A stretch of 64,000 nt of DNA, from the IMG/VR virus record IMGVR_UViG_3300035698_012408. One strand, given 5' to 3'. The notes beneath the pieces were generated by a model, which had not been told where the DNA came from, ran no database searches, and saw nothing but the letters and a program-made list of their open reading frames with translations. The stretch is from a virus. The translations under genes were made by a program, and so were the position numbers. Shown piece after piece: positions 38,209 through 57,468 of the stretch. How positions within the stretch are numbered: the stretch's first letter is position 1; each line of letters begins with the position of its first letter.

Positions 38209-38352
38209 AAGCTAGACAACCGCTAGGCTGTTTAGCCGGAACACGTCCGAATCCGCCGCATTGTGGGCAAGCTGCCATTTTACTGCTTTTCTGCTATTAA
38301 ACTGAATCGGTCTTCAGAATTACTATTATCATGACATTTCTGCCAAGTAATG

Positions 38353-39054
38353 TCAAGCCTCAACCTCAGGACAGCCGAATGCGTGCTCGTTACACGCCAC
38401 CAACGCGTCTATATTCGCGTTCGCCCGATACTTCTCCCGACACCAGTCGGTGGCGATGGTGAACTCATAATTGTAGAACAGCGACTCGGTTAGGTTCATC
38501 GGGGTGACCTGATAGTGCGGCCGTCTCGCGACCGGGTCCACCTCGCCGCCCAGATGCGTAGCCATGCTGACCGCGTGGGAGCAGAAGGGCTGACGGATGG
38601 ACTCGCCGTTCTGTGGCAGCCGATCATCTGTCGTGGGCGGGTAAAGCCGCCACAGCAGCGGCACACGCCGCACAAGCATGCGAAATAGGCCTAACCATCC
38701 GTAGTCACAGATGGTTAGGTCACGCATGGCGGCAACTGCGCCGGCAGGGTCGAATTCAGGCCACCTATTGTCCGCGTTCGGACTAAACACGTCAATCCGC
38801 CCAGGCTTCCGCATGTGGTAGGCAAACGGCTTCGTGCGACCACCGACACCCTCACGCAGCTCCAACATATCAACGTGATCATTCTCATCACGTCGAAACA
38901 TTGCCGAGTGTGAGTGGACTCCCTGCGTGCCCAACCGGATCAGCTGCGAGATGTAGGAATCACCCCGCAACTGGCAGATCCAAGCATTCTGGATCATCTC
39001 CTTGGCATATTCAGGGGACACCCACAACGGACTGCTGGTATCGAATTCCCGCAT
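38353..39054 (-). CDS. putative permuted papain-fold (NlpC/P60- or YiiX-like) hydrolase
   Basis: 233 aa. A His-bearing segment GVHSHSAMF precedes a Cys-bearing segment QPFCSHAVSMA, the order seen in permuted NlpC/P60 enzymes. AAGGAAA SD. Weak call. Confidence 0.35.
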   Translation of the reverse strand: MREFDTSSPLWVSPEYAKEMIQNAWICQLRGDSYISQLIRLGTQGVHSHSAMFRRDENDHVDMLELREGVGGRTKPFAYHMRKPGRIDVFSPNADNRWPEFDPAGAVAAMRDLTICDYGWLGLFRMLVRRVPLLWRLYPPTTDDRLPQNGESIRQPFCSHAVSMATHLGGEVDPVARRPHYQVTPMNLTESLFYNYEFTIATDWCREKYRANANIDALVACNEHAFGCPEVEA

Positions 39055-40073: not shown

Positions 40074-41924
40074 CTATCGAAGCCCTAAGACAGATCCTGC
40101 TACGCCTCGCATGAATCCACCCCAGATGCCAAGGTCTTGAAGTTTCGTCTGGCCGGCTGGCGTAAGCCCGCCCAATGCCCCAAGCACTCCACCAGCTATC
40201 CGCGCGGTGGCGAGATCCAGGCCGGCGTTAGCCAGCCCGGAGATAAAGTGCGTGGGTCGTAATATTGGAGCTCCACCATACATCTGCTGGACTCCAGTAA
40301 CAAGCCCTGACGCCGCAGCCGCAATGTACGGCGGCGTGTTGGGCGTCCCCATGCCGTACGGGTTCGCAGTTGAACTCTGCCGCCCGTTATGCACATCATT
40401 CCAAATCGCTCGATTGAACGAGTCTACCGGTACCTGTTTCAACGACACCCCTGCCGACCCACCATAGCCGGAGTAGGCCACCTTGCAAAATCCTTCAGCT
40501 GCTCGCATGAACAGCTCAGACGGCTGAGGCAACGCTGCCTTCGTCGCCTGCCAATCGCTCCCTTTGTAGAAATTATCCCGAAGCGTCAACTCATTCGGCG
40601 ACATCGGGACTTTCGCGTGTGGCGTCATCATCGTACCCATGAAACCCATCGGCTTCCCAGCCTCTCGGGCCATCCCAGCGTTTGCAAACGCTGGCGGGAC
40701 GCTGGACAACGCACCCATCCCTCCACCTAACATGGCCAACGTCCGACGAAGTCTGTTACGCCGAACGTACTTCTCGGGCAGCAGGTGCTCCAGCAGCGTT
40801 CCGCCGAGGTACCCTCCGCCCGCCCCGAGCAAGCCACCGACTATCGAATTGGTCAATGGCGAAGGCCCGCCTGTGGCGGCCCCAGCCCACTCATACGGCT
40901 TGTTCAAGATGCTCAATGCACCAGCCGCCGATTTGATCAACACCCAGTCATCCTGCCCGTGTGGGCCGTACTCCGACTCGGTTCTGACGCTATCCACGCC
41001 ACTGATGGCCTTCAACGCGTTAGCCCACTTCTGATGGACGTTGTCGCTGTCGCCATCCGACAAGATAGCCCAGAGCTGCTTTGTCTCGGGATTCCACCAC
41101 ACGTCACCATAACCGGGGTCAGATGATGCGGGCAGATACCTGATGACCTTCTTGACCGTCTTCTGGACCGTGGCCGCCTCTTTGTAGCGAGTAGCCACGA
41201 GCGCCGGGACAGCCATCCAGGCCTCCAGTTCTCCCTGCTTTTCGATACGTTGGATGGTCTCGTCTTGCACTTTCGACCATGCCTTCCTGGCGTCTACGCC
41301 GCGATCGTCAATGTAAATATCGGCAATCAGCTTATCGCTGGTGCCATCCGGCTGATCCGGGTTCTCGTTCACATAGTCCCACGGAATGTCGTGTTCGTCA
41401 AGATAGGTCTTCGTGAGTTCGTCATCTCCCCGCACCGTGTTAATGATAACACGCCAGCCGCGACCTTTGAACTCATCCAGAGCTTTTTTAGCCCCTGGAC
41501 GTGGCTTAGGGATGTCTTCGGGATCAAACTTATCATACATCTCTGCAATGGTCCCGTCCAGATCTACTGCCACGGTCGGGACCTTTTCACCGGCTTCTGC
41601 CTGCTTTATTGTATCATCCAGGCCAGCACTTCCATCCCATAGGCCGCGGAAGGCCGCCTGCCCAGCAATCCGCTGCGGAAGTCCTCCATCTGTAGATCGT
41701 AGGCCCGCCAGTGCTTTGCTACTGCTCTGCGTTGTTGCTGTGCGACCCACAACGCTCGACGCCTTTCTGCGCCCCGCGTTGCCTGCCGTTCTCGCTTCTG
41801 CCGTTTTTGCTGGCGTCGCGAGCAGCGTTCCGATTTGCCTTTGGACTTTCCCCGTTTGGTGACCCGTTCCTTTGGCTCGTCGCATCTCATGCGTCGTCTG
41901 TCTCCTATGTGTTGTGGCCATCAT
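40074..41924 (-). CDS. HAD-superfamily phosphatase domain fused to a long glycine-zipper C-terminal region
   Basis: HAD motif I VAVDLDGTIAE, motif II VIINTVRG, motif III-like KLIADIYIDDRG. The C-terminus has IVGGLLGAGGGYLGG and IAGGVLGALGG. ATG at 41924 has a GGGAG SD. Confidence 0.6.
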   Translation of the reverse strand: MMATTHRRQTTHEMRRAKGTGHQTGKVQRQIGTLLATPAKTAEARTAGNAGRRKASSVVGRTATTQSSSKALAGLRSTDGGLPQRIAGQAAFRGLWDGSAGLDDTIKQAEAGEKVPTVAVDLDGTIAEMYDKFDPEDIPKPRPGAKKALDEFKGRGWRVIINTVRGDDELTKTYLDEHDIPWDYVNENPDQPDGTSDKLIADIYIDDRGVDARKAWSKVQDETIQRIEKQGELEAWMAVPALVATRYKEAATVQKTVKKVIRYLPASSDPGYGDVWWNPETKQLWAILSDGDSDNVHQKWANALKAISGVDSVRTESEYGPHGQDDWVLIKSAAGALSILNKPYEWAGAATGGPSPLTNSIVGGLLGAGGGYLGGTLLEHLLPEKYVRRNRLRRTLAMLGGGMGALSSVPPAFANAGMAREAGKPMGFMGTMMTPHAKVPMSPNELTLRDNFYKGSDWQATKAALPQPSELFMRAAEGFCKVAYSGYGGSAGVSLKQVPVDSFNRAIWNDVHNGRQSSTANPYGMGTPNTPPYIAAAASGLVTGVQQMYGGAPILRPTHFISGLANAGLDLATARIAGGVLGALGGLTPAGQTKLQDLGIWGGFMRGVAGSVLGLR

Positions 41925-41943
41925 AAATCTCCCGTCCCTGGAG

Positions 41944-42672
41944 TTATTCGTCGAAATAGCACTCAAGGTCGGTGCCGGTAAACTCTTGCTTCAGTTCCGT
42001 GTAATTCTCAATCTGCGATGATAAGGATCTAATCCCTACCTTCACTGTATTGGTTGTAGGCGCCGGGCACAATGCCGGATCTACATCAAGATGCTCGTAG
42101 ATGCGACGCATATACCGCAGCGGGGCTGCACACAGCGACTCGTACGTCAAAACGAAAGAATCCGTATAAGCTAGGCCCGTGGTGGACTGGAGCTGACGAA
42201 TGGCGTCAATATCCTGACGCAACGCAGCAGAGTCCACAACCAGCCGCTGATTCCGAATACGCTCAGCTTTACGCCGCCACCCCGCCTGATGCCGTCGAAT
42301 CTGCCATTTCCTGTGATGATCACCCAATTGATGAGACACGAACCGCCGCAGCAGGTTCCACCGCTGAAGCACGATAACCTTCGTGTCTTGAGGTAACAGC
42401 TTAAACAGATCATTGTACTCACGTGGGTTAGTCCAATGAGGCTGCACCCCTTGCCAGCCGTGAAACATGTGCGCGACCGCCCCGGAGCCCTGTGTCGCCA
42501 ACGTCCGCTGAATGCGGGCACTCGTACTCATTCGCGGTCGACCCGCTTTCGCTCCAGGATTAAACACCTCGCCATCACACGCCAAGTCGGGATGAGAGTT
42601 GATCAAGCCGCGGAGCATGTGCGTGCCGCACCGTGGAAAGGTCAAGACTAAAAATCCCTTTGGTTTTGCCAT
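41944..42672 (-). CDS. sulfotransferase (NodH/Stf0-like), paralogue 1
   Basis: GFLVLTFPRCGTHMLRGLINSHP (PAPS P-loop), LQRWNLLRRFVSHQL, YESLC...RRIYEHLDVDP, ends TDLECYFDE. Confidence 0.75.
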   Translation of the reverse strand: MAKPKGFLVLTFPRCGTHMLRGLINSHPDLACDGEVFNPGAKAGRPRMSTSARIQRTLATQGSGAVAHMFHGWQGVQPHWTNPREYNDLFKLLPQDTKVIVLQRWNLLRRFVSHQLGDHHRKWQIRRHQAGWRRKAERIRNQRLVVDSAALRQDIDAIRQLQSTTGLAYTDSFVLTYESLCAAPLRYMRRIYEHLDVDPALCPAPTTNTVKVGIRSLSSQIENYTELKQEFTGTDLECYFDE

Positions 42673-42688
42673 CTATTCAGTTCTCCGA

Positions 42689-43417
42689 CTATTCATTGAA
42701 ATAACACGCGATGTCAGTGTCTGCAAAACGCCTTTTCAATGACTCGTAATTGATTATCATGTCACGTAACGACCTACCCATATGCAGCGGTAGCGTCTCG
42801 GCTTCAATATTCTCGCAAGCATCCGGGTCCGCCCCGAGGTGCTCGTAAATGCGACGCATGTGAAACTCGGTGTGTAGACACAGCTGCTCATACGACACCC
42901 TGTAAGTATTTAGAAACTGGCAACCCCGCGTGGCTAGTATCACCCGAGCGGTGTGTATATCGCCTCGCAACCGCGCGGGGTCTAGCATCACACGTGCATC
43001 TCTTGCTTGCGTTACTAGAACCTGTGCATCACGCTTACTTCGCGTGACGTTCCATACGCTCTTCCTCGCCAACCGCCCCGACGCATACCGTCGCAATAGA
43101 TTCCACCGCTGAATGCACACGACTTTCGTGTCCAATGGTACTTGCTTGAACAAGTCGGCAAACCTAGTTCGTCGCCCTTTCGGCCAGCCGGTACAAGCAT
43201 GAGCTATCATACCAGTAAGCGGCCCCTGCCAATATTCATTTAGGCGAGCCTGCACGCCCCCTGATTCCTTGAACCTGCTAGGATCAAATACCTCATCATG
43301 ACACGTAATGGCTGGGTGTGCATTGAGCAGCGACCGTAAAAAATGACTGCCACTTCTCGGATACGAGAGTAACAGAAATCCTTGCTTACCTTCAGGGAAC
43401 ACCAAACGATCACTCAT
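42689..43417 (-). CDS. sulfotransferase (NodH/Stf0-like), paralogue 2
   Basis: MSDRLVFPEGKQGFLLLSYPRSGSHFLRSLLNAHP, IQRWNLLRRYASGRL, ends TDIACYFNE. ATG at 43417 overlaps the upstream stop as ATGAGTGA. Confidence 0.75.
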   Translation of the reverse strand: MSDRLVFPEGKQGFLLLSYPRSGSHFLRSLLNAHPAITCHDEVFDPSRFKESGGVQARLNEYWQGPLTGMIAHACTGWPKGRRTRFADLFKQVPLDTKVVCIQRWNLLRRYASGRLARKSVWNVTRSKRDAQVLVTQARDARVMLDPARLRGDIHTARVILATRGCQFLNTYRVSYEQLCLHTEFHMRRIYEHLGADPDACENIEAETLPLHMGRSLRDMIINYESLKRRFADTDIACYFNE

Positions 43418-44159
43418 CAAAATAACACGCAAGGTCAGTGCCCGCAAAATGCTTCTTCACCTTTCCATAATTGGTCACTATCTCCCGGATCGGCCGATCC
43501 GCGTTAAGCACCATCGTCTTGGCCTTCACGTGCTTGCACGCATCCGGGTCAGCCCCGAGGTGCTCGTAAATCCGCCGAATATGTTCTTCAGTATTAGCTC
43601 GCAGCTGCTCGTACGTTACCAGATGAGTATTCACGAATTGCAGCCCGAGCGTGGCCAATATTGCTCTGGTGACATCTACATCCAGTCGCAACTTCACCAC
43701 GTCCACACGGATTGTCTGGGTTCTCGCAGCCTCCGCACGGGCTTCAGCGTTGTCCGAACCAGTCATCACCGTCCACTCGTTACTCGCCTGCGCCAGTAAA
43801 TGCGATACGTGCCGTCGAAACAGGTTCCACCGCTGGATGCACACGATCTTCGTGTCCAGCGGCAGCGTCGGGAATAATCCGGCGAAACCACTCTTTGCCC
43901 GCCACACGCAGTCACGCTCCCCACGCCAACCAATATACGCGTGGGCAATCATGCCCGTGAGCGGCCCTTTCCAATACTGGATCAGTCGCTGCTCTACATG
44001 CCCCGGTTCCGGGTAAAGTTCACGGTTAAATATCTCGCCGTGACACTTGATGTCCGGGTGCTCGTTGAGAAGCGATCGCAGGAAATGACTACCACTTCTC
44101 GGATACGAAAGTAGCAGAAATCCTTGCTTGTCTTTGGGAAATGCTAACCGATTACTCAT
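43410..44159 (-). CDS. sulfotransferase (NodH/Stf0-like), paralogue 3
   Basis: MSNRLAFPKDKQGFLLLSYPRSGSHFLRSLLNEHP, IQRWNLFRRHVSHLL, ends TDLACYFDE. The start overlaps the upstream stop as ATGAGTAA. Confidence 0.75.
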   Translation of the reverse strand: MSNRLAFPKDKQGFLLLSYPRSGSHFLRSLLNEHPDIKCHGEIFNRELYPEPGHVEQRLIQYWKGPLTGMIAHAYIGWRGERDCVWRAKSGFAGLFPTLPLDTKIVCIQRWNLFRRHVSHLLAQASNEWTVMTGSDNAEARAEAARTQTIRVDVVKLRLDVDVTRAILATLGLQFVNTHLVTYEQLRANTEEHIRRIYEHLGADPDACKHVKAKTMVLNADRPIREIVTNYGKVKKHFAGTDLACYFDE

Positions 44160-44901
44160 CGAAATATGGCTCCATGTCTGTACCCATGCACTGGGCTTTC
44201 AGCTCTTCGTAATTTGTTACCTGTTGACTAATCGGCACCCGGGCAAACCGCACTGACGTGGTCGTAGGATTTAACTGCTTACCAGGATCTACGCCAAGGA
44301 ACTTGTAAATATCCCACATGACCCGCTTGGGCGTGCTGCAAAGCTGCTCATAGGTAATGTGTATAGCATTTTGAAACCGTAGCCCGATCGTGGACTGTGC
44401 GGCTCTGGCCATGTCCACGCTGGTACGCAGAGCACCAAGCGGAATATTTACCGTAGTCCTGTCGTACTCATCCCGCCGAAACTTCCCTGGTGCGTTAGTC
44501 CTTGCCTCCCACGCCCTGCACTTCAATGCCATGCGGTCAGACACGTAGCGTCGCAACAGATTCCAGCGATGCAGCACCACGCAAACCTGCTCAGGCCTAA
44601 AGCTAACCAGCGGCTCGGCCTTCAACATATCGGCCACGCCCGTCTCTATCCACGCCGTCTTGTCAAGCGTGTACTGGCACGTCATGTGATGCGTGTAACC
44701 AACGTGCTTCCCAGCACTGTAATGCTCCAAGACGTTCGCCACCGTGTGAGGCTGTTTCACCTTTTTTGTGTAATGCGACAGCACATTGAACAGCTCGCCG
44801 TGACAGTGCAAGTCTGGATGCGAGTTAATGTAATCGCACATCAGATGCGTCCCAGAACGTGGGAGCGACAACAGCACAAATCCTCGTTTAGACCCTGCCA
44901 T
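44152..44901 (-). CDS. sulfotransferase (NodH/Stf0-like), paralogue 4
   Basis: MAGSKRGFVLLSLPRSGTHLMCDYINSHP, LHRWNLLRRYVSDRM, ends TDMEPYFDE. ATG at 44901 forms a TAATG junction. The track start is 44931. Confidence 0.75.
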   Translation of the reverse strand: MAGSKRGFVLLSLPRSGTHLMCDYINSHPDLHCHGELFNVLSHYTKKVKQPHTVANVLEHYSAGKHVGYTHHMTCQYTLDKTAWIETGVADMLKAEPLVSFRPEQVCVVLHRWNLLRRYVSDRMALKCRAWEARTNAPGKFRRDEYDRTTVNIPLGALRTSVDMARAAQSTIGLRFQNAIHITYEQLCSTPKRVMWDIYKFLGVDPGKQLNPTTTSVRFARVPISQQVTNYEELKAQCMGTDMEPYFDE

Positions 44902-45833
44902 TACAAATACTTCTCCAATAACTGCGCCCACTTCTTATGGAACGTCGCCAACCCGAATCGTTCACGTGCGATTTCGACATTTGGCGGTGAGCCTGCCAAT
45001 GCCTTCTTAACAAATCCTGCCAATACGTTCGCGGAAACTACTGCTCCGCGTTTCGGTGGAATCCTTGTCACCATGTCAGCGAACTCTTTGCAGCTGGCAC
45101 GTGCGGAAACCACCACCCGCTTACCCATGCACGCAGCTTCGAGCACACAGTATGGGAATGCTTCATTATGTGACGGCACGCACAACACATCAGTTGCACG
45201 ATAGACGTCGCCCGGCGTATCAGTGTACCCTTGCAACGTCGTCCACCGATTATTCAACCGCCGGGAGCCTGCGACACCCTGACCAGACAGCAGTGCCGGC
45301 TCCTGCAACTTCCGGGCAGCCTTGGCCACCGCAACGGCATTCTTCAGCCCCGAGTTTCTACCAACAAACCCCAACAGGAACTGCTCCCCGTACTTCTCGC
45401 GTAGGTCCTCGCCGACGCGGTCCAACCGCTCACAATCAACACCGTTCGTGATCGTCAACGGCTCTCGGCCGAGAGTCTTCCTCATGTTCCCCGCTACGGG
45501 TGACGAAACAGCGACCAACACGTCGGCGGCCTTCATAGCATCCACCCAGCCAGCGTGCCACTTGTTACGGTGATGCCGCACGCAGATCTGCACGCCGCCA
45601 ACCCGTTTGGTCACGCCGCCACTGGAATCGATGATCACCTTCGCGTCAGTGATAACACCTTGCTGCCACTCCAGCCCTGCCGCTGTAAGCCGCGCAAGTG
45701 CCGCGGGTAGAATCATCGGACCCTGAACACGGACACGCATACCGATAGACTGCAAGTAAGGGGCTAGGCTTAACACCCATGTGAGTCCCCCGCCGCAGTC
45801 CAATTTCTTGAATGCAAATGCTATATCGATCAC
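44901..45833 (-). CDS. GT4-family (GT-B) glycosyltransferase, paralogue 1
   Basis: E-x7-E motif EAFPYCVLEAACMGKRVVVS. Collinear with the next gene. A GTG at 45833 (GTGA overlap, TGGAGAAG SD) aligns with the paralogue's MTDITFAF. Alternative start at 45860. Confidence 0.7.
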   Translation of the reverse strand: MIDIAFAFKKLDCGGGLTWVLSLAPYLQSIGMRVRVQGPMILPAALARLTAAGLEWQQGVITDAKVIIDSSGGVTKRVGGVQICVRHHRNKWHAGWVDAMKAADVLVAVSSPVAGNMRKTLGREPLTITNGVDCERLDRVGEDLREKYGEQFLLGFVGRNSGLKNAVAVAKAARKLQEPALLSGQGVAGSRRLNNRWTTLQGYTDTPGDVYRATDVLCVPSHNEAFPYCVLEAACMGKRVVVSARASCKEFADMVTRIPPKRGAVVSANVLAGFVKKALAGSPPNVEIARERFGLATFHKKWAQLLEKYL

Positions 45834-46768
45834 AGATACTTCTCCAATAACTGCATCCACTTTTTGTAGAATAATGGCAGCCCGAAACGCTCTCGGGCTA
45901 CCGCAACGTCGGGAGGCGGGCCTGCCAATGCCTTCTTCACATGTGCTACTATTGCCTCTGCCGTCGGAGTAGTCCTGGCATGCTGCACTTCGATTCGCGT
46001 AACCATATCAGCGTACTCTTCGCAATGTGCGCGAGCTGATACCACCACACGTTTACCGAGACACAGAGCTTCTACCACCGAGAATGGGAAGGCTTCGTGC
46101 TTGGATGGCACGCACATGACGTCAGCGGCTCGATAGACATCGCCTATCGTGGTCGTGTAACCAATCAACTGCGTGTAGTCGTTCTTCAGTCGACTATCCC
46201 CAGCAATGTTACCGCCCGCAAAGATAGCATGGCGATTGAATAGCTTGGCCGCCTTGGCTATCTGTGCTGCGTTCTTCAACTGAGAGTTACGACCGACGAA
46301 CCCCATCAGAAACTCACGACCGAACTTTTTACGCAGGTCCACACCAACCTTGTCCAGACGGTCAATGTCCACGCCGTTGTTGATGACCACGGGCATTCGC
46401 CCAGTGTATCGACGGGTGTTATGAGCCACCGGGATAGACACGGCGACGATTTCATCCGCTTTCTTCGTAGCCTTCACCCAACCACTCAGCCACGTCCGCC
46501 GGCTATGCCGCACGGCGATGACAGGGCCATCATGCTCCCGTGCTACCTTGCAGCCACTGGAGTCGATCACGATGCGGGTATCCTTGATGACACCGATCTC
46601 GAACGGGATGCCCGCTGCTGTCAACGTGGCTATCGCCGTTGGAAACAGCTTCGGTCCCTGGACACGGACGGTCACGCCCTGTGACTGAAGATAAGAGGCG
46701 AGCGAGATTACCCAGGTAAGCCCACCGCCATTATTTAATCCGCGGAACGCGAACGTGATGTCGGTCAT
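45830..46768 (-). CDS. GT4-family (GT-B) glycosyltransferase, paralogue 2
   Basis: 312 aa. EAFPFSVVEALCLGKRVVVS. Roughly 55-60% identical by eye to paralogue 1. ATGA overlap with the methyltransferase gene. Confidence 0.75.
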   Translation of the reverse strand: MTDITFAFRGLNNGGGLTWVISLASYLQSQGVTVRVQGPKLFPTAIATLTAAGIPFEIGVIKDTRIVIDSSGCKVAREHDGPVIAVRHSRRTWLSGWVKATKKADEIVAVSIPVAHNTRRYTGRMPVVINNGVDIDRLDKVGVDLRKKFGREFLMGFVGRNSQLKNAAQIAKAAKLFNRHAIFAGGNIAGDSRLKNDYTQLIGYTTTIGDVYRAADVMCVPSKHEAFPFSVVEALCLGKRVVVSARAHCEEYADMVTRIEVQHARTTPTAEAIVAHVKKALAGPPPDVAVARERFGLPLFYKKWMQLLEKYL

Positions 46769-47319
46769 GCCTTCTCCAGATAGAAGATCGTTTCCTTCCG
46801 ATACGTATCCTCGTGGTGGATATGCCCTTTGAGCATCTCACGCAGATCCGCTTCGCATAACCGAATGTTTGGAATGATGTGGCCTTCCCAGTTATCGTCC
46901 CTGACGTTCGTGTCCGTCTCGGCCATTCGCAAGAACAACACCAACGTCATCCGTTTCGTGTAGGACTTGAGAGCGTTTTCGAGAATCTTCCGCCAGTTGA
47001 CGTTATGTTCCAACACGTGACGCATGTTGAGGCAGGGCACGCGGGAGGTGTAGACTTCGAGATCCTTCAGGTAATCACAGAATCCCGCAGTGCCATCAAC
47101 GCCGATATATTCCGGCCGATCGGCTGGGGGCACCATGTTGTGCAGCACCTTCTCGAAGTCGCGGCAACCGCAGCCCCAGTCTTCAATCATGCCGTTGCCT
47201 TCCAGCCACGCGACAGATCGCCGATAGGAAGTTTTGCGTCCGTAGTCCCGCCGATGCGCTCCGTCTTTATAACACGGCGACCACTTACCGGCTCCACTTT
47301 CTTCTCTTGACTTCCCCAC
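46765..47319 (-). CDS. class I SAM-dependent methyltransferase
   Basis: 184 aa. Motif I-like MIEDWGCGCRDF, followed by YIGVDG and MRHVLEH. GTG start with an AAGGAGAG SD. Confidence 0.65.
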   Translation of the reverse strand: MGKSREESGAGKWSPCYKDGAHRRDYGRKTSYRRSVAWLEGNGMIEDWGCGCRDFEKVLHNMVPPADRPEYIGVDGTAGFCDYLKDLEVYTSRVPCLNMRHVLEHNVNWRKILENALKSYTKRMTLVLFLRMAETDTNVRDDNWEGHIIPNIRLCEADLREMLKGHIHHEDTYRKETIFYLEKA

Positions 47320-47329
47320 GCTACTCTCC

Positions 47330-48760
47330 TTAAATAATTCGACTTAGTAATTGTGCCACAGGCGATGCCTGCTTTACGAGAAATCCATCCGTGCCAGCCC
47401 CGACACGTGTCCCACCACTCCGCCCATTGTCTCCTGGGACATGAAGCCCATCCTGCCCGGCGGTTCCCGATCTGGAGCTCGCCCCACCACTTGGTCGTGA
47501 TCCTCCCGGAAACTCCGTGGTGCCAGCTCTCTTGGTGGTGGCATTAGGCCCTGCGGCAGGTCCTGCACCTCGTCCATGATCGGCGTGTTCGAGGTCACTC
47601 CGCGAATCCGATCGGCTGCACGTGACAGACCATGTGGCTGTCTTGGTTCGGGCAACGGCTCCAGCATTGCTGGCCGCGTGTGCAACTGCGGCGGTTCGTG
47701 AGACCGTGGCGGCTCCTGCTGGTACAGCGAATGGAACGACTGGAACGCGTGCTCCTGCGGCTCCACCGGCAGATCCCGACTTAGTTGCTCCACCTGCCGC
47801 CCGTCCTCCGTCATTATCCAAGACACTCCGATGAACCTCGGGTCGCTGTACATGTGCTTCCGTTGCGGTCGCGAGACGATCCACAGCGGACCCCCGGGCG
47901 GAGGTGGCGGGGTCCACAGTTGCGGCAGCGACAACACCCGGGACGGCGGCTCCACCAGCTTTGCTAGTGGCGGAGGTAACGGCTTCTCCGGTGGCAGCTT
48001 GATCAGACCCAAATCCCCCGACTTTATAACGCGGATCACGATATGATCGCCAGTCTCGGATCGCATCGAGGACTTGATTTCCTGTCTGAGCCTTCGACGC
48101 ATCCCCCGACTGGCTATCGGCTGCGTAACTGGTTGATTCACTTGCGTTTGTGTCATAGAAACTGCTCCCGCTCTTCCCAAAAACTGGTATGTTTTCGTGA
48201 ATTGGATCGGTACTTAGAAACCGTCCAGGGTTATGAATCAGGCTGCCCTTTTTGACATTGCCAGCCTGAAGGACTCGCTTCTTGCGAATCGCGAAGGTGC
48301 TATGGAACTTGAACTCGCCGTTCTTCGGCAGGCCGCTCAGTCCATAACTTTTACGTAGCTTCTCCAGCTCGGGGCTGTGGATTTCGATCATCCAACACTT
48401 GGAGACGTCATCCCAGCCGTGAGGTGATACTGCCCGCACTGGGCCCAACGTGTAACCGAAGGACTTACCACGTTCTGTTATCTTATCACCTCCACCGATT
48501 TCGTCAATCTCTTCTTTCCGCATTACCGAGACATGAGCCCTATAATTCCCAGAATCTTGCTTGGGTACCTCGGTCCCTGGCTCATTCAACGCTTGGAACG
48601 CACCATGCCCTAAGGCGTTCGGTACGTCCATCAGGAGCCACCCGGAGGCAGATAGGTAGAGTTTGCCCTGGAGCGAGTACGAAAGCTCAGGGGCAGCCGC
48701 AGCCATCTTGCGACCGCCCCGAGCTTCGCAACCTTGGCGGGTTGTATCAGTCATTGACAT
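47330..48760 (-). CDS. 2H-phosphoesterase-like protein (LigT / cyclic-nucleotide phosphodiesterase superfamily); only the N-terminal ~190 aa look genuine
   Basis: Two H-x-[ST]-x motifs about 78 aa apart: RAHVSVMRK and FKFHSTFAIRK. The ORF has no in-frame stop until 47330 and so overlaps the better-supported 47374-48156 frame. The likely start at 48760 lies 5 nt after the upstream stop. Confidence 0.5.
   Translation of the reverse strand: MSMTDTTRQGCEARGGRKMAAAAPELSYSLQGKLYLSASGWLLMDVPNALGHGAFQALNEPGTEVPKQDSGNYRAHVSVMRKEEIDEIGGGDKITERGKSFGYTLGPVRAVSPHGWDDVSKCWMIEIHSPELEKLRKSYGLSGLPKNGEFKFHSTFAIRKKRVLQAGNVKKGSLIHNPGRFLSTDPIHENIPVFGKSGSSFYDTNASESTSYAADSQSGDASKAQTGNQVLDAIRDWRSYRDPRYKVGGFGSDQAATGEAVTSATSKAGGAAVPGVVAAATVDPATSARGSAVDRLATATEAHVQRPEVHRSVLDNDGGRAAGGATKSGSAGGAAGARVPVVPFAVPAGAATVSRTAAVAHAASNAGAVARTKTATWSVTCSRSDSRSDLEHADHGRGAGPAAGPNATTKRAGTTEFPGGSRPSGGASSRSGTAGQDGLHVPGDNGRSGGTRVGAGTDGFLVKQASPVAQLLSRII
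47374..48156 (-). CDS. Pro-rich hypothetical protein (the frame supported by codon-position GC)
   Basis: ATG at 48156 has a GGGAG SD. Hand counts at 47701-47760 and 47941-48000 give GC3 of 85% and 70% in this frame, versus 40% and 50% in the overlapping 511-aa frame. Confidence 0.5.
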   Translation of the reverse strand: MTQTQVNQPVTQPIASRGMRRRLRQEIKSSMRSETGDHIVIRVIKSGDLGLIKLPPEKPLPPPLAKLVEPPSRVLSLPQLWTPPPPPGGPLWIVSRPQRKHMYSDPRFIGVSWIMTEDGRQVEQLSRDLPVEPQEHAFQSFHSLYQQEPPRSHEPPQLHTRPAMLEPLPEPRQPHGLSRAADRIRGVTSNTPIMDEVQDLPQGLMPPPRELAPRSFREDHDQVVGRAPDREPPGRMGFMSQETMGGVVGHVSGLARMDFS

Positions 48761-50162: not shown

Positions 50163-53100
50163 TTACGTTGTCGCTGGTGCGACGTTAGCCGGCGTTGCCG
50201 CCGCCTGTGATGTTCGCCATTTGTACCAAAGATCCAAAAACTGATCCTGCTGCTCCGGCGCCACGATGTCCTCCATCATGCCAGATCGCAATCCGGTGAC
50301 GTCGCCCGCGAAGCCAATAACTGAATTACCCCAGCTGCCAAAGCCAGCAGCTCTGTCAAGTTGTTCCTGCTGATCAGGCCCGACCGCATTAAACACGGCC
50401 TCAAGTGCGTGTTCGCCGCCTTGGCCGCCGCGAAGTGCCATCGCCACCATCGGCTTCACTGCCGCCTTCATTGCGTCGGACATCGGCTCCGGTGGAGACA
50501 CCACGTCACTGCCCGCCTCGTACACCTCCTCGGCTCCTGGCTCGAACTGATCTCGCACGAAACCCTGGACGCCTTCTCCGAACATGCCTTGGCGTGCCAG
50601 CGGATAGGCTGCTCCGGCTAACCCTAGCAGGGCCATAAGCCAACTTCCAATACCGCCGCCGTCCTTGCTGGTCATCGCGGACACCAGACCGAGCAGACCA
50701 ACGCCTGCACCGCCATAGAGCAAGACCTGCTCCCAGGTGTCCATGCTTTCGAGCATCCCGCCCACTTCTTCCTCCGGTACGCCTTCAGCCACCAACGCGG
50801 CCGCTGCGTCGTCTGTGACCACCTGCGGTACCGGCTGATCATTTGCAACAGTCTGCACGATCGCCTGCTTATCGGGATCAGCAAATAGGCCAGTTATCGA
50901 CTCGCCAGCTTGATCCAGGTACTCTTGAGCCCTCTCCGGGAACTCGTTTACGAGGCCCGGTATGCCCATACTCTCAAACAGCCCTTCGATCGGGCGTAGC
51001 GGCAGATTCTGCTCTACCCCGGCTTCAGGCTGCTGTGGTCCTTGAACCGGTGCCCCAGGCTGCTGTGGTCCTTGAACCGGTGCCCCAGGCTGCTGTGGTC
51101 CTTGAACCGGCGCTCCGGGCTGCTGTGGTCCTTGCGCCGGCGCTCCGGGCTGTTGCGGACCTTGAACCGGCGCAGGTGGCGGCGTGGGCTGCGCAGGTGG
51201 CTGCGCAGGCTGCTGGGGTCCAGCCACCGGCGTGGCGGGTGTGTTAGGTGGTGTGGGTGTGTTAGGTGGTGTGGGTGTGGTAAGTGGTGCAGTCACCGGA
51301 GGTACCGACGAAACGGGTGGAGCCGCTACCGGCTCCACTGGTGGTGCTGCTGCGGGTGCGGCCGGCCCGGGCACGTTCGGCGTGGCACCAGGGAAGAACG
51401 TCTCCGTACCCTGCGGCAACGTCGTCGCCATCGGTACGTTGCCAAGCATCTCGGCCGGAGGCAGTGTCGCTGGTGGCGTCGGTACGCCTGCTGCCATCTT
51501 CACCCACGACTGTTGCTTCTCCCGCCCGTAGGCCCGGAGCAGGTCCTGCTGTGCTTGTTGCTGGGCTGCCATATCCGCAGCTTGCTCAATCTGAGCTTCG
51601 CTGATTCCCGGTTGGCCGCCGTACTGCTCTGTCAACATCACCTTATATTGCTTAGCGTATTCAGCCACCCGTTGCTCGCCACCCGTCTGCAACGCTTCAC
51701 GCGGTGTCGTGGCAAGTTGCTCTCGATCAAAATCTACAGCAAAGTCAGCGGGATTAGCAGGCTCTACCACTCCGGTGCGTTCCAGCCATCGCTGCGTACC
51801 GCCGCTCTGCTGCTGGTGATTTTCACGCATCCCCTGAACAGCGCCACCTCCGGCCGTCCACTTCAGTGGGATAGTCAGATCTTTAAGACCCTTGGTAACA
51901 GACGGATTCATTCCGGGAATCCTCTGCGACGCGCCAGACATACCACGAAGTGCCGCCCAGGACGGAAGATCTTCTACGACCCCGGCACCTGCCTCAGTAA
52001 GCATTCGCTGAGCTATATTTGCCCCGGGCTGGTTTCCTATCTCGCGAATGCGATCTGCCCCAAGCTGTTGGTAATCACCAAGATTACCGCCGCCGGGCAT
52101 CGGCACGCCATCGATACCGATCTGTATCCCTTCATACGCCGGTGCGAGTGCTTGATACTTAGCGAGCGTATTGAGTGTCGGTTGGAACCCTTTAATACCC
52201 TTCCCCAAACCCCCGAACGCCAGCGACTGAGCAACCTGTGGAGCTGCCTCGACACCGCGGCCAACCATCCGTTTAAGACCACGCCCGACGGGGCCACTCT
52301 CCAATGCCCCTTCCGACAAATCACGACGCGCGCCCGCCCGCCCGGTTCGCGTATCGCGAGCCAGCTGCCCAAGATACTTCATCCGCTGCAACATGTCTTC
52401 CCGAGATGCCTGCGGAAGACTCTGATCTATAGCCCCTTGCATAAGCCGCGGCGCACTGTACTCCGTTAGCTCGCTCATCTGATTCAGTTGTGTCTGGGCG
52501 TCAGCGTCGCCGGCACCAGCGGCTGCGCGTAGTTCATCCAGTCGGTCGCCATTGCTCAACATCTGTCGCGCATTGTGCGAGTTCCCGCGATTCACATCCT
52601 CCATCGCTAGGGTGCGTGCGAACTCTTCTGGATGGCGATTTGCTTCACGCATCTGACCACCGTAGTCGCCCAAGCTCCCCTGCGCGCTGTTCGGATGCAG
52701 CCCCACCCTTGCCGCGTGCGGATTGATACCTTCTCTCAGTGGTGTCAGAATGGGCGAGATAAGGTCATTCAAACCACCTAACGCTCCGGTGTCTGGATTT
52801 TCACCTGTAGCCGCAGCAGACATTCGACCCCCAAGCGGTCCGAGTGTCCTCAACGCGACCAGTGCCTGAGGTATATTTAGAGCGCCACGACCTACATTAG
52901 ATGCTATATCACGAGCCATATCCCCACCGGTACGTCGATCATTCGCCACCGCGTAGGAATTAGCTGCATACTGTGCTGCCTCATCGCCCAACGGCGCGAG
53001 ATTCAATATATGATTACCACGCTCTCCCCCCGGTGCCGTGGTCTTCTGCCCAAAGAAAAACCCGGCGCCTGGAGCTTGCCCGACCGGGATAGGTGCCAAG

Positions 53101-54809
53101 CCTCTGCGAAAAAGATCCTCCATTACCTTGGGATTACCGTGCAAACCAGTGTTACCCAGCCACCACCGCAGCCCGGAATTCACCGACGTATCAATGTTCT
53201 CCCGGAAGACACGAGACTTGTGATCACTGAGCAGCCCACGAACACGCTCATAAGGATCGTCGCCCGCCCCGACGGGTTTGTCATGCTGCGTCCGCAGCCG
53301 TACATTCCAAGCGTTCGGATTGGAGGTGCCAAAAAACGCCTCACCGCGAGGATCATCCTGAGCGTGGGCATAACCTGCCGGAATCTCTCGTATGTCCTGC
53401 CGTGGCTGTGCAGACCGTCCTTCTCCGTATTCTCCGTACATCTTGCTGGCGTGGTCGTACATGCCCACCTTCTGCCCGAAGTAGTTCGTAGAGAATGCGC
53501 GGAGTCGCCGCGTCACTTCCTCCGTGTCACCCCGGACCATCGGATCTGACATGATAGAGTCTGTCCGCTTCCTGAAATACCGATCAGTCTCACGCAGCTT
53601 CGTGAAGGTTGGCGTGAGTACACCGCCATTCTCAGCGTTCACGGTGTCCGCAAAAACGTCTTCAGTAGCCAGCCTTGCCATCTCCTCAGTAAAGTTGCCA
53701 GGGGCAAACGAATCAAAGGTCGGTGTTGGGTTCGAGCGAGGAGCGTTCCTCCGTGCATCCCGAGCTTTCACGCTGCGTTTCAGATAGTCCAAGCTGTTGG
53801 CATAATCATGCTTCTTGTACCCCGACAGCGCCATATTCAGGCTGTGAGGATTGTCACTGTCATCACGGGACTGATGCTCGACCATAGTCCGCCAAGCCTC
53901 TTGCGCCCCGTCGTTCCCTCTCGCTCGATAGTCGTCATCCCACAGCTTCCGGTTGTTCTGCCAATCCTTCCAAGGGCCTTCACGGTATGCGTCGAGTGCC
54001 GTGTGCTGCTCTGGGGTCATCCGCCCCTCAGGCTCTCTGAAACGTCCCGAGAAGGCCACCGAGGAGTGGTCGAACTCCGGCTTGGCTTGCCGGTTGCTGT
54101 TGTAGCCCAATAGTTGCTGGAGCTGCTCCGGCGGGGCCGGCGGCGTGTAGTAGCCCATCTCGCGGTTCAGCTGCGGCGGTGGCTGGAGCTGGTCAAGCGT
54201 CGCCGGGGAGAACTGCATAGACTCGTCCACATGAGACTGATCACGTAGATTACCCAGTTGCGCGCCTTGTGGCATGCTGCCTGTCTGGTCCAGGTAGGAC
54301 GACTGCTCTGGGGCCTGTGTTGGATTAGGGGCCCGCGGGATGGGTTGGTTCGGCTGCCCGGCCCAATTGGTCGCCGGAGGCTGCGGACCCTGCACCGGGG
54401 GCTGGGCCGGTAGGGAATCAGGGAGATTTGGCTTGTAATCAGGGGTTTGAGCGTCCGAAATAAGCCGATTCGCCGGTCTCACGCCGTCCAGATTGGGATT
54501 ACGCCACGGATGCGTGTCCGGGGTGTACGGCGACTTCCCCGCAGCGATATTGTCCTGCATGTAGGGCGGCGGACCGATCGCACACTTCTCGAACTCTGCC
54601 GCTACTGCGGGATGGAAGTCGATAGCGTGCTGAATGGCAGAAAAGACCTCCCGATCGCTGTTAAGCCCAGCTTCCTTGCAGCGCAGCAGAAAACCGGCTA
54701 CAAATGCGGACTTTTCAGGCGTTACAGCCCGTAAATTGATAGCCGCAGCTGCGGATTGCAGCTCAGCAGTGGTTTGGGTCGGACCAATCAATGAGAAAGC
54801 GCCAGCCAT
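50163..54809 (-). CDS. giant (1548-aa) hypothetical protein with Pro-rich tandem repeats and a C-terminal membrane segment
   Basis: ATG at 54809 has an AAGGAGGG SD. N-terminal motif FVAGFLLRCKEAGL. Repeats are (QGPQQPGAPV)x5 and PTPPNTPTPPNT. TM-like segment VLLYGGAGVGLLGLVSAM...WLMALLGLAGAAYPL. Confidence 0.7.
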   Translation of the reverse strand: MAGAFSLIGPTQTTAELQSAAAAINLRAVTPEKSAFVAGFLLRCKEAGLNSDREVFSAIQHAIDFHPAVAAEFEKCAIGPPPYMQDNIAAGKSPYTPDTHPWRNPNLDGVRPANRLISDAQTPDYKPNLPDSLPAQPPVQGPQPPATNWAGQPNQPIPRAPNPTQAPEQSSYLDQTGSMPQGAQLGNLRDQSHVDESMQFSPATLDQLQPPPQLNREMGYYTPPAPPEQLQQLLGYNSNRQAKPEFDHSSVAFSGRFREPEGRMTPEQHTALDAYREGPWKDWQNNRKLWDDDYRARGNDGAQEAWRTMVEHQSRDDSDNPHSLNMALSGYKKHDYANSLDYLKRSVKARDARRNAPRSNPTPTFDSFAPGNFTEEMARLATEDVFADTVNAENGGVLTPTFTKLRETDRYFRKRTDSIMSDPMVRGDTEEVTRRLRAFSTNYFGQKVGMYDHASKMYGEYGEGRSAQPRQDIREIPAGYAHAQDDPRGEAFFGTSNPNAWNVRLRTQHDKPVGAGDDPYERVRGLLSDHKSRVFRENIDTSVNSGLRWWLGNTGLHGNPKVMEDLFRRGLAPIPVGQAPGAGFFFGQKTTAPGGERGNHILNLAPLGDEAAQYAANSYAVANDRRTGGDMARDIASNVGRGALNIPQALVALRTLGPLGGRMSAAATGENPDTGALGGLNDLISPILTPLREGINPHAARVGLHPNSAQGSLGDYGGQMREANRHPEEFARTLAMEDVNRGNSHNARQMLSNGDRLDELRAAAGAGDADAQTQLNQMSELTEYSAPRLMQGAIDQSLPQASREDMLQRMKYLGQLARDTRTGRAGARRDLSEGALESGPVGRGLKRMVGRGVEAAPQVAQSLAFGGLGKGIKGFQPTLNTLAKYQALAPAYEGIQIGIDGVPMPGGGNLGDYQQLGADRIREIGNQPGANIAQRMLTEAGAGVVEDLPSWAALRGMSGASQRIPGMNPSVTKGLKDLTIPLKWTAGGGAVQGMRENHQQQSGGTQRWLERTGVVEPANPADFAVDFDREQLATTPREALQTGGEQRVAEYAKQYKVMLTEQYGGQPGISEAQIEQAADMAAQQQAQQDLLRAYGREKQQSWVKMAAGVPTPPATLPPAEMLGNVPMATTLPQGTETFFPGATPNVPGPAAPAAAPPVEPVAAPPVSSVPPVTAPLTTPTPPNTPTPPNTPATPVAGPQQPAQPPAQPTPPPAPVQGPQQPGAPAQGPQQPGAPVQGPQQPGAPVQGPQQPGAPVQGPQQPEAGVEQNLPLRPIEGLFESMGIPGLVNEFPERAQEYLDQAGESITGLFADPDKQAIVQTVANDQPVPQVVTDDAAAALVAEGVPEEEVGGMLESMDTWEQVLLYGGAGVGLLGLVSAMTSKDGGGIGSWLMALLGLAGAAYPLARQGMFGEGVQGFVRDQFEPGAEEVYEAGSDVVSPPEPMSDAMKAAVKPMVAMALRGGQGGEHALEAVFNAVGPDQQEQLDRAAGFGSWGNSVIGFAGDVTGLRSGMMEDIVAPEQQDQFLDLWYKWRTSQAAATPANVAPATT
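51031..51180 (-). repeat. 30-bp in-frame tandem repeat, 5 copies
   Basis: TGCTGTGGTCCTTGAACCGGTGCCCCAGGC recurs at 51031, 51061, 51091, 51121 and 51151 with minor variation. It encodes QGPQQPGAPV. Confidence 0.9.
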
Positions 54810-55188: not shown

Positions 55189-55902
55189 TCAATCAGTTTG
55201 CGGGGCCAACCCGCATTGTTCTATTTGGTCCGGTGCATACGGGCGGGTGGGACACATCAGGCTCGGCTTATCCGAGAAGCTCAGCAGCGGCGTCTTCGCC
55301 GTAAACATGTCGAACGTGTCCCAGTGATTCCGCAGCCACATGTCAACAGGGACGCGAGCGAACGCATACCCGTGATACAGCTTCTGCAACCTCCCCGTCC
55401 TGTTATAGAGATACCCCAAGCTGCCCCAGCCGTAAATACCAGAATACAGCAAACGCGTGGCCTCTTTTTTCCTGGGTCCCGACGTCCTGGGCTCCGGCCC
55501 TTCATTCCAGCCGTACTTGCGATCGAACAGGTTGATGGCGTCCCACGAGTCGAGCTGCTTAGCGTGTGCTATCAGCGTCAACAGCGATTTCCTGAACCCA
55601 ACAAGCGGGACCACGTCATCCTCCAGCACCACCAAGTGAGGCTGCTTGTATCGTGTGATAAAGTAGTACAACGCCTTCGAGTGCCCCTCCAGGCAGCTGC
55701 GACACCGCTGAAGATAATTGCTGTCTGTGATGTCGCCGCCCGGGCGGTCGTACATCCCCGTCATATAATTGCCATTGACCTGTTCCGGCGGCGGCGAACG
55801 GATGAAGTCGAAGGGCACGCCGACAGCCTTCATGTTCTCACGCATCATCTCTTGACGATCCGTGGCTCCCGGCACTGTCACAACTAATACTTTGCAATTC
55901 AT
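55189..55902 (-). CDS. glycosyltransferase family 25-like
   Basis: CLEGHSKALYYFITRYKQPHLVVLEDDVVP matches the GT25 pattern (Cys/His region followed by ilEDDv). ATG at 55902 has a GGAGG SD. Confidence 0.6.
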   Translation of the reverse strand: MNCKVLVVTVPGATDRQEMMRENMKAVGVPFDFIRSPPPEQVNGNYMTGMYDRPGGDITDSNYLQRCRSCLEGHSKALYYFITRYKQPHLVVLEDDVVPLVGFRKSLLTLIAHAKQLDSWDAINLFDRKYGWNEGPEPRTSGPRKKEATRLLYSGIYGWGSLGYLYNRTGRLQKLYHGYAFARVPVDMWLRNHWDTFDMFTAKTPLLSFSDKPSLMCPTRPYAPDQIEQCGLAPQTD

Positions 55903-55943
55903 CAAAATAACCTCCAGCGTCGCAGTGACGCCTGCCCCTTATT

Positions 55944-57420: not shown

Positions 57421-57468
57421 GATCATTCTCCTGCTATAGCACTGCTTATTACGTAACCACGACGGCTG

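Follow-up and report, generated by a model that had tools for sequence, protein, structure and literature searches.

A seven-gene phage cassette of predicted sulfotransferases, glycosyltransferases and a methyltransferase, a candidate module for sulfated and methylated glycan

Phage glycosyltransferases are well known to act on DNA, on the host O-antigen and, as found recently, on mycobacteriophage virions; sulfation as a phage-directed modification has, to our knowledge, never been demonstrated. For the virion-glycosylation cassettes of mycobacteriophages, cytoplasmic action on phage proteins is assumed (Freeman et al. 2023, as cited in PMC12619734 and PMC11256854), and there are also phage glycosyltransferases that decorate DNA with diverse glycans (Pyle et al. 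2024, as cited in PMC12619734). Single 'auxiliary' sulfotransferase genes of the family PF13469 occur in marine phages (OM43 phages, Synechococcus phage S-SRM01), where their function was described as unclear (PMC10580990). Two sulfotransferase genes in one bacterial exopolysaccharide (EPS) cluster were called unprecedented in the description of the cyanobacterial xss (synechan) cluster, a paper that also links sulfated polysaccharides to saline habitats (PMC8205485). Here we analyzed a 64,000-nucleotide stretch of viral DNA (IMG/VR record IMGVR_UViG_3300035698_012408; hereafter the window) with a compact cassette predicted to encode four sulfotransferases (STs), two glycosyltransferases (GTs) of family GT4 and one methyltransferase (MT).

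All open reading frames (ORFs) listed in an initial annotation of positions 40074–48760 are present on the minus strand where it placed them; the region holds nine genes, all on that strand, and not the ten it had counted. The true functional unit is probably the seven-gene block 41944–47319, likewise on the minus strand and probably co-translated, in the order MT, GT4 'a', GT4 'b', ST4, ST3, ST2, ST1. We consider it fairly probable that this cassette makes a sulfated, methylated glycan and that the two flanking genes, encoding 2H and HAD proteins, stand outside the pathway. The seven genes are the following (E-values are given after the Pfam families; aa, amino acids):

46765–47319, minus strand: predicted class I S-adenosylmethionine (SAM)-dependent methyltransferase (MT), 184 aa; first gene of the cassette, with a GTG start and an AAGGAG ribosome-binding site
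45830–46768, minus strand: GT4 'a', a GT-B glycosyltransferase of 312 aa whose start overlaps the MT stop (ATGA); PF00534 1.4e-12, PF13692 6.7e-12
44901–45833, minus strand: GT4 'b', a GT-B glycosyltransferase of 310 aa with a GTGA overlap, paralogue of 'a'; PF13692 3.7e-10
44152–44901, minus strand: ST4, 249 aa, with a TAATG overlap with GT4 'b'; PF13469 2.9e-10 over its full length
43410–44159, minus strand: ST3, 249 aa; PF13469 7e-10, PF00685 2e-6
42689–43417, minus strand: ST2, 242 aa, ATG at 43417, with an 8-nt overlap with ST3; PF13469 4e-9
41944–42672, minus strand: ST1, 242 aa, at the end of the cassette; PF13469 3.3e-8

The ATGA (46768), GTGA (45833) and TAATG (44901) overlaps reported earlier were confirmed in the sequence, as were the DLDGT, EX7E and EDWGCGC motifs, and further 8-nt overlaps join ST genes at 44159 and 43417. 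A co-directional, translationally coupled glycan-tailoring block had been proposed for all nine genes; the proposal stands for seven of them and finds no support for the HAD and 2H genes. The overlaps, like the absence of terminators above chance, are consistent with a single operon making one oligosaccharide. In a scan for promoters and terminators, the counts did not exceed the shuffled expectation; the scan was uninformative on operon structure, and the phage has its own RNA polymerase (RNAP). The terminator scan flagged a 12-bp G+C-rich hairpin at 45876–45902 (minus strand), though this hairpin is part of coding sequence, in the 3′-terminal portion of GT4 'a' and just upstream of the GT4 'b' start. 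The G+C content falls to the window minimum of 0.54–0.55 across 42–46 kb, which comprises the ST and GT4 genes (0.55–0.62 elsewhere), and the lowest GC3 is that of ST2 (0.54). The low G+C over 42000–46000 is compatible with a later acquisition of the cassette.

Each of the four STs exceeds the gathering score of Sulfotransfer_3 (PF13469; 34.5, 37.5, 40.0 and 41.2 bits against 27), so that the four sulfotransferases called initially are retained. The paralogues are 33–56% identical. The catalytic set is present in four of four copies: a 5′-phosphosulfate-binding (PSB) loop PR(S/C)G(S/T)H with R14, a glutamate at position 35, and the 3′-phosphate-binding (3′-PB) pair R104...S113 within RWNLxRRxxS; in ST4 the motifs read PRSGTH, CHGE and RWNLLRRYVS. 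The start of ST2 was selected by alignment with ST3 and by the gene calls in contigs L004 and L005. The best solved relative of the ST profile is 'LPS sulfotransferase NodH' (PDB 9vki, E 3e-11, about 195 residues, positions 13–206; LPS, lipopolysaccharide). A search of 1.84 billion proteins with the profile yielded 10,114 representatives at E<=1e-3, 31 of which reached E<=1e-30; many are multidomain, and the named relatives are either 'LPS sulfotransferase NodH' or glycosyltransferase–sulfotransferase fusions. No NCBIfam match at equivalog level was obtained for the STs (NoeE and Stf0 reached about 16 bits against cut-offs of 400–500). By profile and catalytic motifs, the four ORFs are predicted to be NodH-like sulfotransferases dependent on 3′-phosphoadenosine 5′-phosphosulfate (PAPS).

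The invariant E35, situated in C-x-(G/D)-E, aligns with the catalytic-Glu region HPDIRCGEE of TPST1. The profile matches TPST1/2 at 2.6e-10 to 3e-6, with the HPDI(R/K)CxGE catalytic region included, as would be expected if the four STs were protein-tyrosine sulfotransferases of the RaxST/TPST type acting on phage or host proteins, with the GT4 and MT genes independent of them. We regard this as very improbable: the TPST matches cover two short stretches only, while NodH aligns over positions 13–206; the closest database relatives are GT-fused or annotated as NodH; and the tight translational coupling of ST and GT4 genes, together with the conserved MT–GT4–ST order, argues for one pathway.

The two GT4 proteins, 59% identical to each other, are both above the Glycos_transf_1 and Glyco_trans_1_4 thresholds, in agreement with their first description as a paralogous pair. 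Their C-terminal domains scored 48.0/46.3 bits ('a') and 37.4/40.7 bits ('b') against the gathering scores of 26.4/27 for these two families, respectively. The N-terminal family PF13439 (threshold 28.5) gave 29.3 bits for 'a' and 19.7 bits for 'b'. Both proteins contain the E-x7-E motif, which in 'a' is HEAFPFSVVEA. The best PDB match of GT4 'a' is PglA (E 1.4e-4), and all of its NCBIfam GT4 matches are under the equivalog cut-offs.

The MT ORF itself has no Pfam, NCBIfam or PDB-sequence match, which made it the weakest of the earlier calls, but the methyltransferase assignment is sustained by its homologues, motif I and predicted fold. A total of 284 homologues were collected; 34 of the 58 scanned match PF13489 (Methyltransf_23), and these 58 show little or no variation in motif I (E46-D47-W48-G49-C50-G51) and at D75. 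The AlphaFold2 (AF2) model (pLDDT 92.3) gave 165 Foldseek matches in PDB at E<=1e-3; among the top 50 listed, 49 are SAM-dependent methyltransferases, the exception being AzeJ, a SAM-dependent lyase of the same fold. The best match is the N-domain of the sugar O-methyltransferase EvdMO1 (E 1.6e-6, TM 0.60). Because of the homologues, the conserved motif I and D75, and the fold matches of the model, ORF 46765–47319 is assigned as a predicted class I SAM methyltransferase. Members of the family adjoin GT genes in two unrelated phage-like contexts (L014/L015 and L027): GT2, GT2 and GT17 in one, TOD1-MUCI70 and a GT2–MT fusion in the other. Phage-like metagenomic contigs encode at least 284 proteins of this family (about 180 aa each), yet tblastn found none in 50,697 GenBank phage records.

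Another context of the MT family contains ThyX, dCMP deaminase and dNTP pyrophosphohydrolase. Both GT4s have weak 'GT4-conflict' matches (E ~1e-3), and the genes flanking the cassette probably encode nucleic-acid or nucleotide enzymes. With DNA-decorating phage GTs as a precedent (Pyle et al. 2024, as cited in PMC12619734), these observations could fit a cassette that hypermodifies phage DNA or nucleotides, glycosylating hydroxymethylated bases with subsequent methylation and sulfation, as a means of restriction evasion. However, no base hydroxymethylase and no DNA-GT family could be recognized in the window, the relatives of the STs use carbohydrate or protein as substrates, and the comparative data presented below uncouple the flanks from the cassette. 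We also know of no sulfated DNA, and hypermodification appears very improbable.

Relatives of the region were reached via MT and HAD-fusion homologues, and orthology was confirmed by local tblastn. At the site of the cassette (site A), the related contigs are organized as follows:

L009/L010/L012 (230 kb scaffold): 2H+InPase+SET, MT, GT4, GT4, ST, small ORF, HAD-fusion
L011/L018: (2H+InPase+SET), MT, GT4, ST, ST, small ORF, HAD-fusion; the L011 contig ends before the 2H position
L019: 2H+SET+InPase, then a HAD-bearing fusion within about 400 bp, without the cassette
L013: a stand-alone 2H gene, then directly a HAD-less homologue of the fusion C-domain, without the cassette
L020: a 305-aa ORF of unknown function between 2H and the fusion; HAD is present, GT4 and MT are absent there
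L025 (213 kb genome, 24 contigs read): neither ST nor GT4 occurs at the site

The cassette thus occupies the same site in L009 (two GT4s, one ST) and in L011/L018 (one GT4, two STs) with 35–63% amino acid identity, and its dosage, the window included, is one or two GT4s and one to four STs. The conservation of the block among relatives, which the initial annotation had put forward as a check, was observed for the MT–GT4–ST unit in L009, L011 and L018. The lone GT4 of L011/L018 shares 63% identity with GT4 'b'. A neighbour-joining tree of the STs resolved orthologous subfamilies within site A: ST1 has its orthologue in STb of L011 (52%), and the L009 ST groups with STa of L011. ST2 and ST3 (56% identity) are a duplication specific to the window lineage, and ST4, the most divergent paralogue, forms a deep branch with no orthologue in the relatives. 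Identical copies of ST3 were found on nine contigs from several samples. Since the block is kept in L009 and L011/L018 and missing at this site in L019, L013 and L020, the MT–GT4–ST cassette is best described as a unit of gain and loss, with the 2H and C-domain genes as neighbours in its presence or absence.

The two flanking genes of the window are:

47330–48754, minus strand: 2H-SAK phosphoesterase (domain at about residues 50–170) with a low-complexity tail of about 270 aa rich in A/G/S/T, 474 aa; PF22547 3.1e-8
40074–41921, minus strand: HAD-fusion, 615 aa, consisting of an S/T-rich basic N-terminus, a capless HAD domain (about residues 112–230) and a C-domain; PHROG 1238 2e-22

The 2H call proved sound (PF22547, 2H-SAK, 34.3 bits against 27), and both HxS/T motifs are present, AHVSV and FHSTF being common to the window and L009. 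The orthologues in L009 (744 aa), L018 (766 aa) and L019 (909 aa) carry InPase and SET domains, which the window gene has lost. A 268-aa ORF (47374–48180, same strand, other frame) overlaps the low-complexity tail, and gene calls on identical DNA disagree: 474 aa in L002/L003 against 260 aa in the other frame in L004/L005. A frame error in the tail was considered, as ORF 47374–48180 had a tblastn match to L009 (E 2e-4); the match disappeared under composition-adjusted BLASTP against the orthologue, and we rejected this possibility with low confidence. The 474-aa frame is backed by two collinear short motifs.

The HAD phosphatase call was upheld by PHROG 1238 (2e-22; PHROGs have no curated cut-off) and by full HAD motifs, D120-L-D122-G-T124, T162, K197 and D205-D206, invariant in three orthologues; it stayed under the Pfam and NCBIfam cut-offs (PF00702, 15.5 against 26.4 bits; NF046079 BT0820, 36.9 against 165 bits, 4e-9). 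In PDB the domain matches 2obb (2.4e-4), and the fusion also has a weak PHROG match to polynucleotide kinase. The HAD domain recurs at 55–64% identity in multidomain proteins with LigD 3′-phosphoesterase, ATP-dependent DNA ligase, AAA_18/AAA_33 kinase, InPase, NUDIX and 2H domains. Most of the 55 homologues of the HAD-fusion consist of the C-domain only (about 410 aa), some carry HAD, and two, P0310 and P0312, have a 2H-SAK domain in place of HAD as the head on the same C-domain. The C-domain (window positions 40074–41231, about 390 aa) is glycine-zipper-rich and conserved across a clade of 213–230 kb RNAP-encoding phages (P0282–P0319, P0334). Its AF2 model had a pLDDT of 70, and Foldseek found nothing below E 0.04 in BFVD and PDB; a virion or ejection protein is one possibility.

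Phage polyvalent proteins, in which 2H and InPase are phage-specific domains, are predicted to be packaged in virions and are encoded near late genes (Iyer et al. 2017, PMC5512222). The domain mixes of that type were seen in the orthologues, and the window's own 2H and HAD copies keep one enzymatic domain each. Because the fusion partners match end-healing and end-sealing enzymes and polyvalent proteins, the HAD and 2H proteins look like enzymes of nucleic-acid ends or nucleotides and not of the glycan pathway, a reading with which the weak polynucleotide kinase match agrees. The cassette would occupy a variable accessory slot between polyvalent-type genes with exchangeable heads.

Sugar-phosphate phosphatases such as GmhB are found among the HAD-IIIA and BT0820-type phosphatases. 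The initial annotation suggested one operon for a single sulfated, methylated oligosaccharide, made up of all nine genes; in such a pathway, HAD would act as a sugar-phosphate phosphatase or a 3′-phosphatase of 3′-phosphoadenosine 5′-phosphate (PAP), and 2H in a phosphodiester step. The nine genes are indeed adjacent and co-directional with short gaps, PHROG 1238 is annotated as 'phosphoheptose isomerase', and a 3′-phosphatase would be useful to STs, which are product-inhibited by PAP. HAD, cassette and 2H also occur together in the window, L009 and L018, and the cassette with HAD in L011. Comparative genomics nevertheless splits 2H and HAD from the seven genes and makes this version improbable. 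In L019 the 2H gene is followed by the HAD-bearing gene without the cassette, L020 has HAD without GT4 and MT there, and in L013 a HAD-less C-domain gene follows 2H. The nearest HAD domains (64%) belong to ligase, LigD-PE, kinase, InPase and NUDIX proteins, and thus to fusions with end-healing and end-sealing domains, while the 2H orthologues carry InPase and SET, and in P0310/P0312 a 2H head replaces HAD.

In the second GT cluster, proposed earlier upstream of the cassette (site B, 55189–58969, minus strand), the putative GT genes are two GT25-like ORFs, one GT-B-like and one DxD-motif ORF:

55189–55905 and 58016–58969, minus strand: GT25-like ORFs
55944–56951, minus strand: GT-B-like ORF
57469–58197, minus strand: DxD-motif ORF, assigned to GT-A by a DxD-like motif only

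The two Pfam matches in the cluster (PF01755, E 0.0064; PF13524, E 4.8e-4) are both below the gathering scores, the remaining assignments being by motif, so the GT evidence itself is weak. As paralogues, the two GT25-like ORFs are distant from each other, at 22% over 228 aa (E 3e-4). ORF 58016–58969 overlaps the next gene by 182 nt, and its last ~70 residues resemble low-complexity read-through. ORF 57469–58197 was tried as a homologue of the GT2-annotated gene of L025 and found not to be homologous. The link to the cassette is plausible, however, as L013 (one ST) and L020 (three STs) keep STs between the homologues of 58016 and 57469; in the ST tree these site B STs lie apart from those of site A. 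In L013, the site B ST stands beside two further SAM methyltransferases (Methyltransf_11 and Methyltransf_24/TylF-like). Because the STs of these relatives lie within it, site B probably feeds the same pathway as the cassette, and the arrangement of L013 and L020 may be an alternative layout of that pathway. In these more distant relatives (L013, 1992–5661; L020, 152–2668), the STs are situated upstream of the cold-shock-domain gene, and one of the STs carries an N-terminal extension, a fused domain of about 125 aa that weakly resembles methyltransferases.

The window has a G+C content of 57% and carries practically all of its long ORFs on the minus strand. A 1,495-aa ORF (25383–29870) contains fused beta/beta′-like RNAP segments, and a second RNAP-like ORF of 633 aa is located at 22241–24142; PHROG RNAP families match these ORFs at 1e-7 to 8e-30. 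Other products include a tail-sheath-like protein and trypsin-like and papain-like peptidases; neither tRNA genes nor an integrase were seen in the window. JGI, ENA and Logan assemblies of several samples contain contigs with identical copies of island proteins, the longest contig being 215,361 bp; the JGI samples may be metagenomes of Antarctic saline lakes. The length of these contigs, together with its own RNAP, makes the window look like part of an uncultured jumbo phage genome with a multisubunit RNAP; the phage looks lytic, given the RNAP and the lack of a visible integrase in the window. The nearest GenBank phages, and the only ones with full-length relatives of the 1,495-aa ORF, are Salmonella phage Arash and Vibrio phages D181, D148 and D69, with only ~31% identity over the RNAP. 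The phages of the moraphage paper belong to a different lineage without RNAP (PMC12619734).

Against the 50,697 GenBank phage records, megablast of the island DNA and tblastn of ST3, ST4 and MT gave no match, and tblastn of GT4 'a' gave two weak fecal-phage matches only. A scan of IMG/VR returned one marginal match for ST3 (L001) and none for GT4 'a'. Searches of genome contigs gave no match to the HAD-fusion, and to the ST alignment only four bacterial metagenome-assembled genomes matching the N-terminal 40–50 residues, which is uninformative. PADLOC found no defence system among ten proteins. Just upstream of the region, a 1,548-aa ORF (50163–54809) has no family match; only its termini are conserved, and it is split or shorter in relatives (1,067+419 aa in L009, 538 aa in L013). 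Downstream, a Peptidase_M10 gene, in some cases with PG_binding_1, lies between the homologues of 38353–39054 and 38039–38278 in L009 (16730–17548), L011 (7282–8103), L018, L019 and L020. The window has only 75 nt there (38278–38353); since all five relatives encode the peptidase, the gene was apparently lost in the window lineage.

Returning to the proposed product, no signal peptide or hydrophobic N-terminus was visible by eye in the seven cassette enzymes, and for this reason their probable place of action is the cytoplasm of the infected cell. The chemistry of the families suggests a route in which the retaining GT-B enzymes would add one or two sugars from host nucleoside diphosphate (NDP)-sugars, the small class I MT would O-methylate a sugar with SAM, and the four diverged STs would move sulfate from host-made PAPS onto different hydroxyls or residues, sulfating up to four positions. 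A short glycan, densely sulfated and methylated, would result. A regular-expression and Pfam search of the window ORFs revealed no Walker-A kinase (P-loop of the APS-kinase type) in any real ORF and hence no gene for PAPS supply. Flippase, ABC transporter, polymerase and priming phosphoglycosyl transferase were all absent among the 50 window ORFs of the Pfam scan, and no self-contained Wzx/Wzy or ABC-type polysaccharide locus was recognized in the window. As PAPS synthesis, lipid-carrier priming, flippase and polymerase are missing from it, the cassette is expected to decorate an existing acceptor and not to make a free polysaccharide.

Several points weigh against this interpretation. The donor sugars, the acceptor and the sulfation sites are all inferred. 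Most ORFs in the window have no family match, and only 64 kb of a genome of ~215 kb was seen, which means that a PAPS gene beyond the 64 kb, or a flippase or priming enzyme of a new type, could have been missed. Over their N-terminal half, the STs are about as near to protein-tyrosine sulfotransferases (TPST1, 2.6e-10), so that a protein-tyrosine acceptor is conceivable, and the MT family has its third context in nucleotide metabolism, with thioredoxin, ThyX and dCMP deaminase as neighbours. HAD and the cassette occur together in three of five HAD-bearing lineages, so HAD may have a supporting role, for instance in 3′-dephosphorylation of the PAP by-product. Finally, synteny is expected among related phages anyway and by itself is no proof of functional coupling.

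Regarding the acceptor, we lean slightly and tentatively towards a phage-made protein, either of the virion or injected: the phage looks lytic and encodes an RNAP, lipid-carrier and export genes were not found in the window, and the neighbourhood is virion-associated. Virion glycosylation in mycobacteriophages is a fitting precedent. A host intermediate, linked to undecaprenyl pyrophosphate (Und-PP) or belonging to LPS or EPS, is about equally likely, and we would be somewhat surprised by any other acceptor. With a host acceptor, the cassette would remodel the host envelope, placing sulfated and methylated sugars on LPS core, O-antigen or EPS intermediates at the cytoplasmic face; the benefit would be a block of superinfection, or the prevention of progeny re-adsorbing to infected cells and debris. 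This competing explanation, which we hold to be possible to the same degree as a phage-protein acceptor, agrees with the nearest ST relatives being annotated as LPS or Nod-factor sulfotransferases and with the nearest GT4 relatives acting on Und-PP-linked or LPS/teichuronic acceptors (PglA, TuaC, LPS GlcNAc transferase). The GT25-like genes of the window and a GT9 gene of the relative L026 represent LPS-core families, cellular sulfated-EPS clusters likewise combine STs with GTs (xss; PMC8205485), and the variable content of the cassette among related phages fits the tracking of host-specific acceptors. However, the phage looks lytic (own RNAP, no integrase seen in the window), so it is not obvious what would profit from lasting seroconversion; neither a membrane-associated nor an export component turned up in the window; and all NCBIfam matches are far under the equivalog cut-offs. 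The enzymology would be the same as in our preferred interpretation, from which this one differs in the acceptor only.

An unlikely, further-reaching possibility is that the jumbo-phage clade coats its virions or injected proteins with a phage-made, densely sulfated and O-methylated glycan, forming a heparan-like polyanionic coat. Host PAPS, SAM and NDP-sugars would be the inputs, and a fast-evolving ST array would write lineage-specific 'sulfation codes', which would control adsorption, adherence to particles or mucus, or evasion of host surface defences. For the sulfated, methylated glycan as such, activity of the module would mean that infection diverts host PAPS and yields a strongly anionic glycan, with consequences for phage adsorption, superinfection biology and sulfur flux in saline waters, and that the genes provide a small toolbox of soluble carbohydrate sulfotransferases. 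The module is compact, conserved and dynamic in copy number (one to four STs, which outnumber the GTs in the window), and it recurs in an uncultured clade with genomes of ~213–230 kb. It is also a clean example of an accessory cassette inserted between polyvalent-type genes with exchangeable heads, where adjacency can mislead annotation.

The STs noted in marine phages are solitary (PMC10580990), and two STs were already unprecedented in a bacterial EPS cluster (PMC8205485); a phage cassette of four STs, two GT4s and an MT with variable dosage across a clade is therefore a new form of phage glycan-modification module, not a new kind. Through their relatives, the flanking genes resemble polyvalent proteins (PMC5512222): 2H-SAK is combined with InPase and SET in the orthologues, HAD recurs elsewhere with LigD-PE, ligase, kinase, NUDIX and InPase, enzymatic heads are exchangeable on a common module, and proteases are encoded nearby. 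Unlike those proteins, the window copies are down to one enzymatic domain each, and the conserved C-domain of the flanking fusion has no structural match. The mycobacteriophage cassettes, as far as they are described in the papers citing them, share small clusters of soluble phage GTs, the lack of export machinery and the lytic-cycle context; no sulfotransferases are reported in those descriptions, and the families and hosts are unrelated. The rhizobial NodH/LPS sulfotransferase (9vki) has in common with the predicted STs the PSB loop, the 3′-PB R...S pair and, by prediction, the chemistry of PAPS-dependent carbohydrate O-sulfation, whereas the similarity is at the family level only, and the STs here are four tandem viral paralogues with no nod, LPS or PAPS-synthesis (nodPQ-like) genes alongside them in the window. 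Like the cassette, the xss cluster (PMC8205485) combines several GTs with more than one ST, of families including PF13469, for a sulfated glycan; it has Wzx, Wzy, PCP and regulators and two STs per eight GTs, whereas the phage cassette has four STs per two GTs (plus the weakly supported GT cluster) and an MT, without polymerisation and export genes. The PF13469 genes of marine phages (PMC10580990) share the Pfam family and the phage genome context; they are solitary, whereas here an ST array is coupled to GT4 and MT genes.

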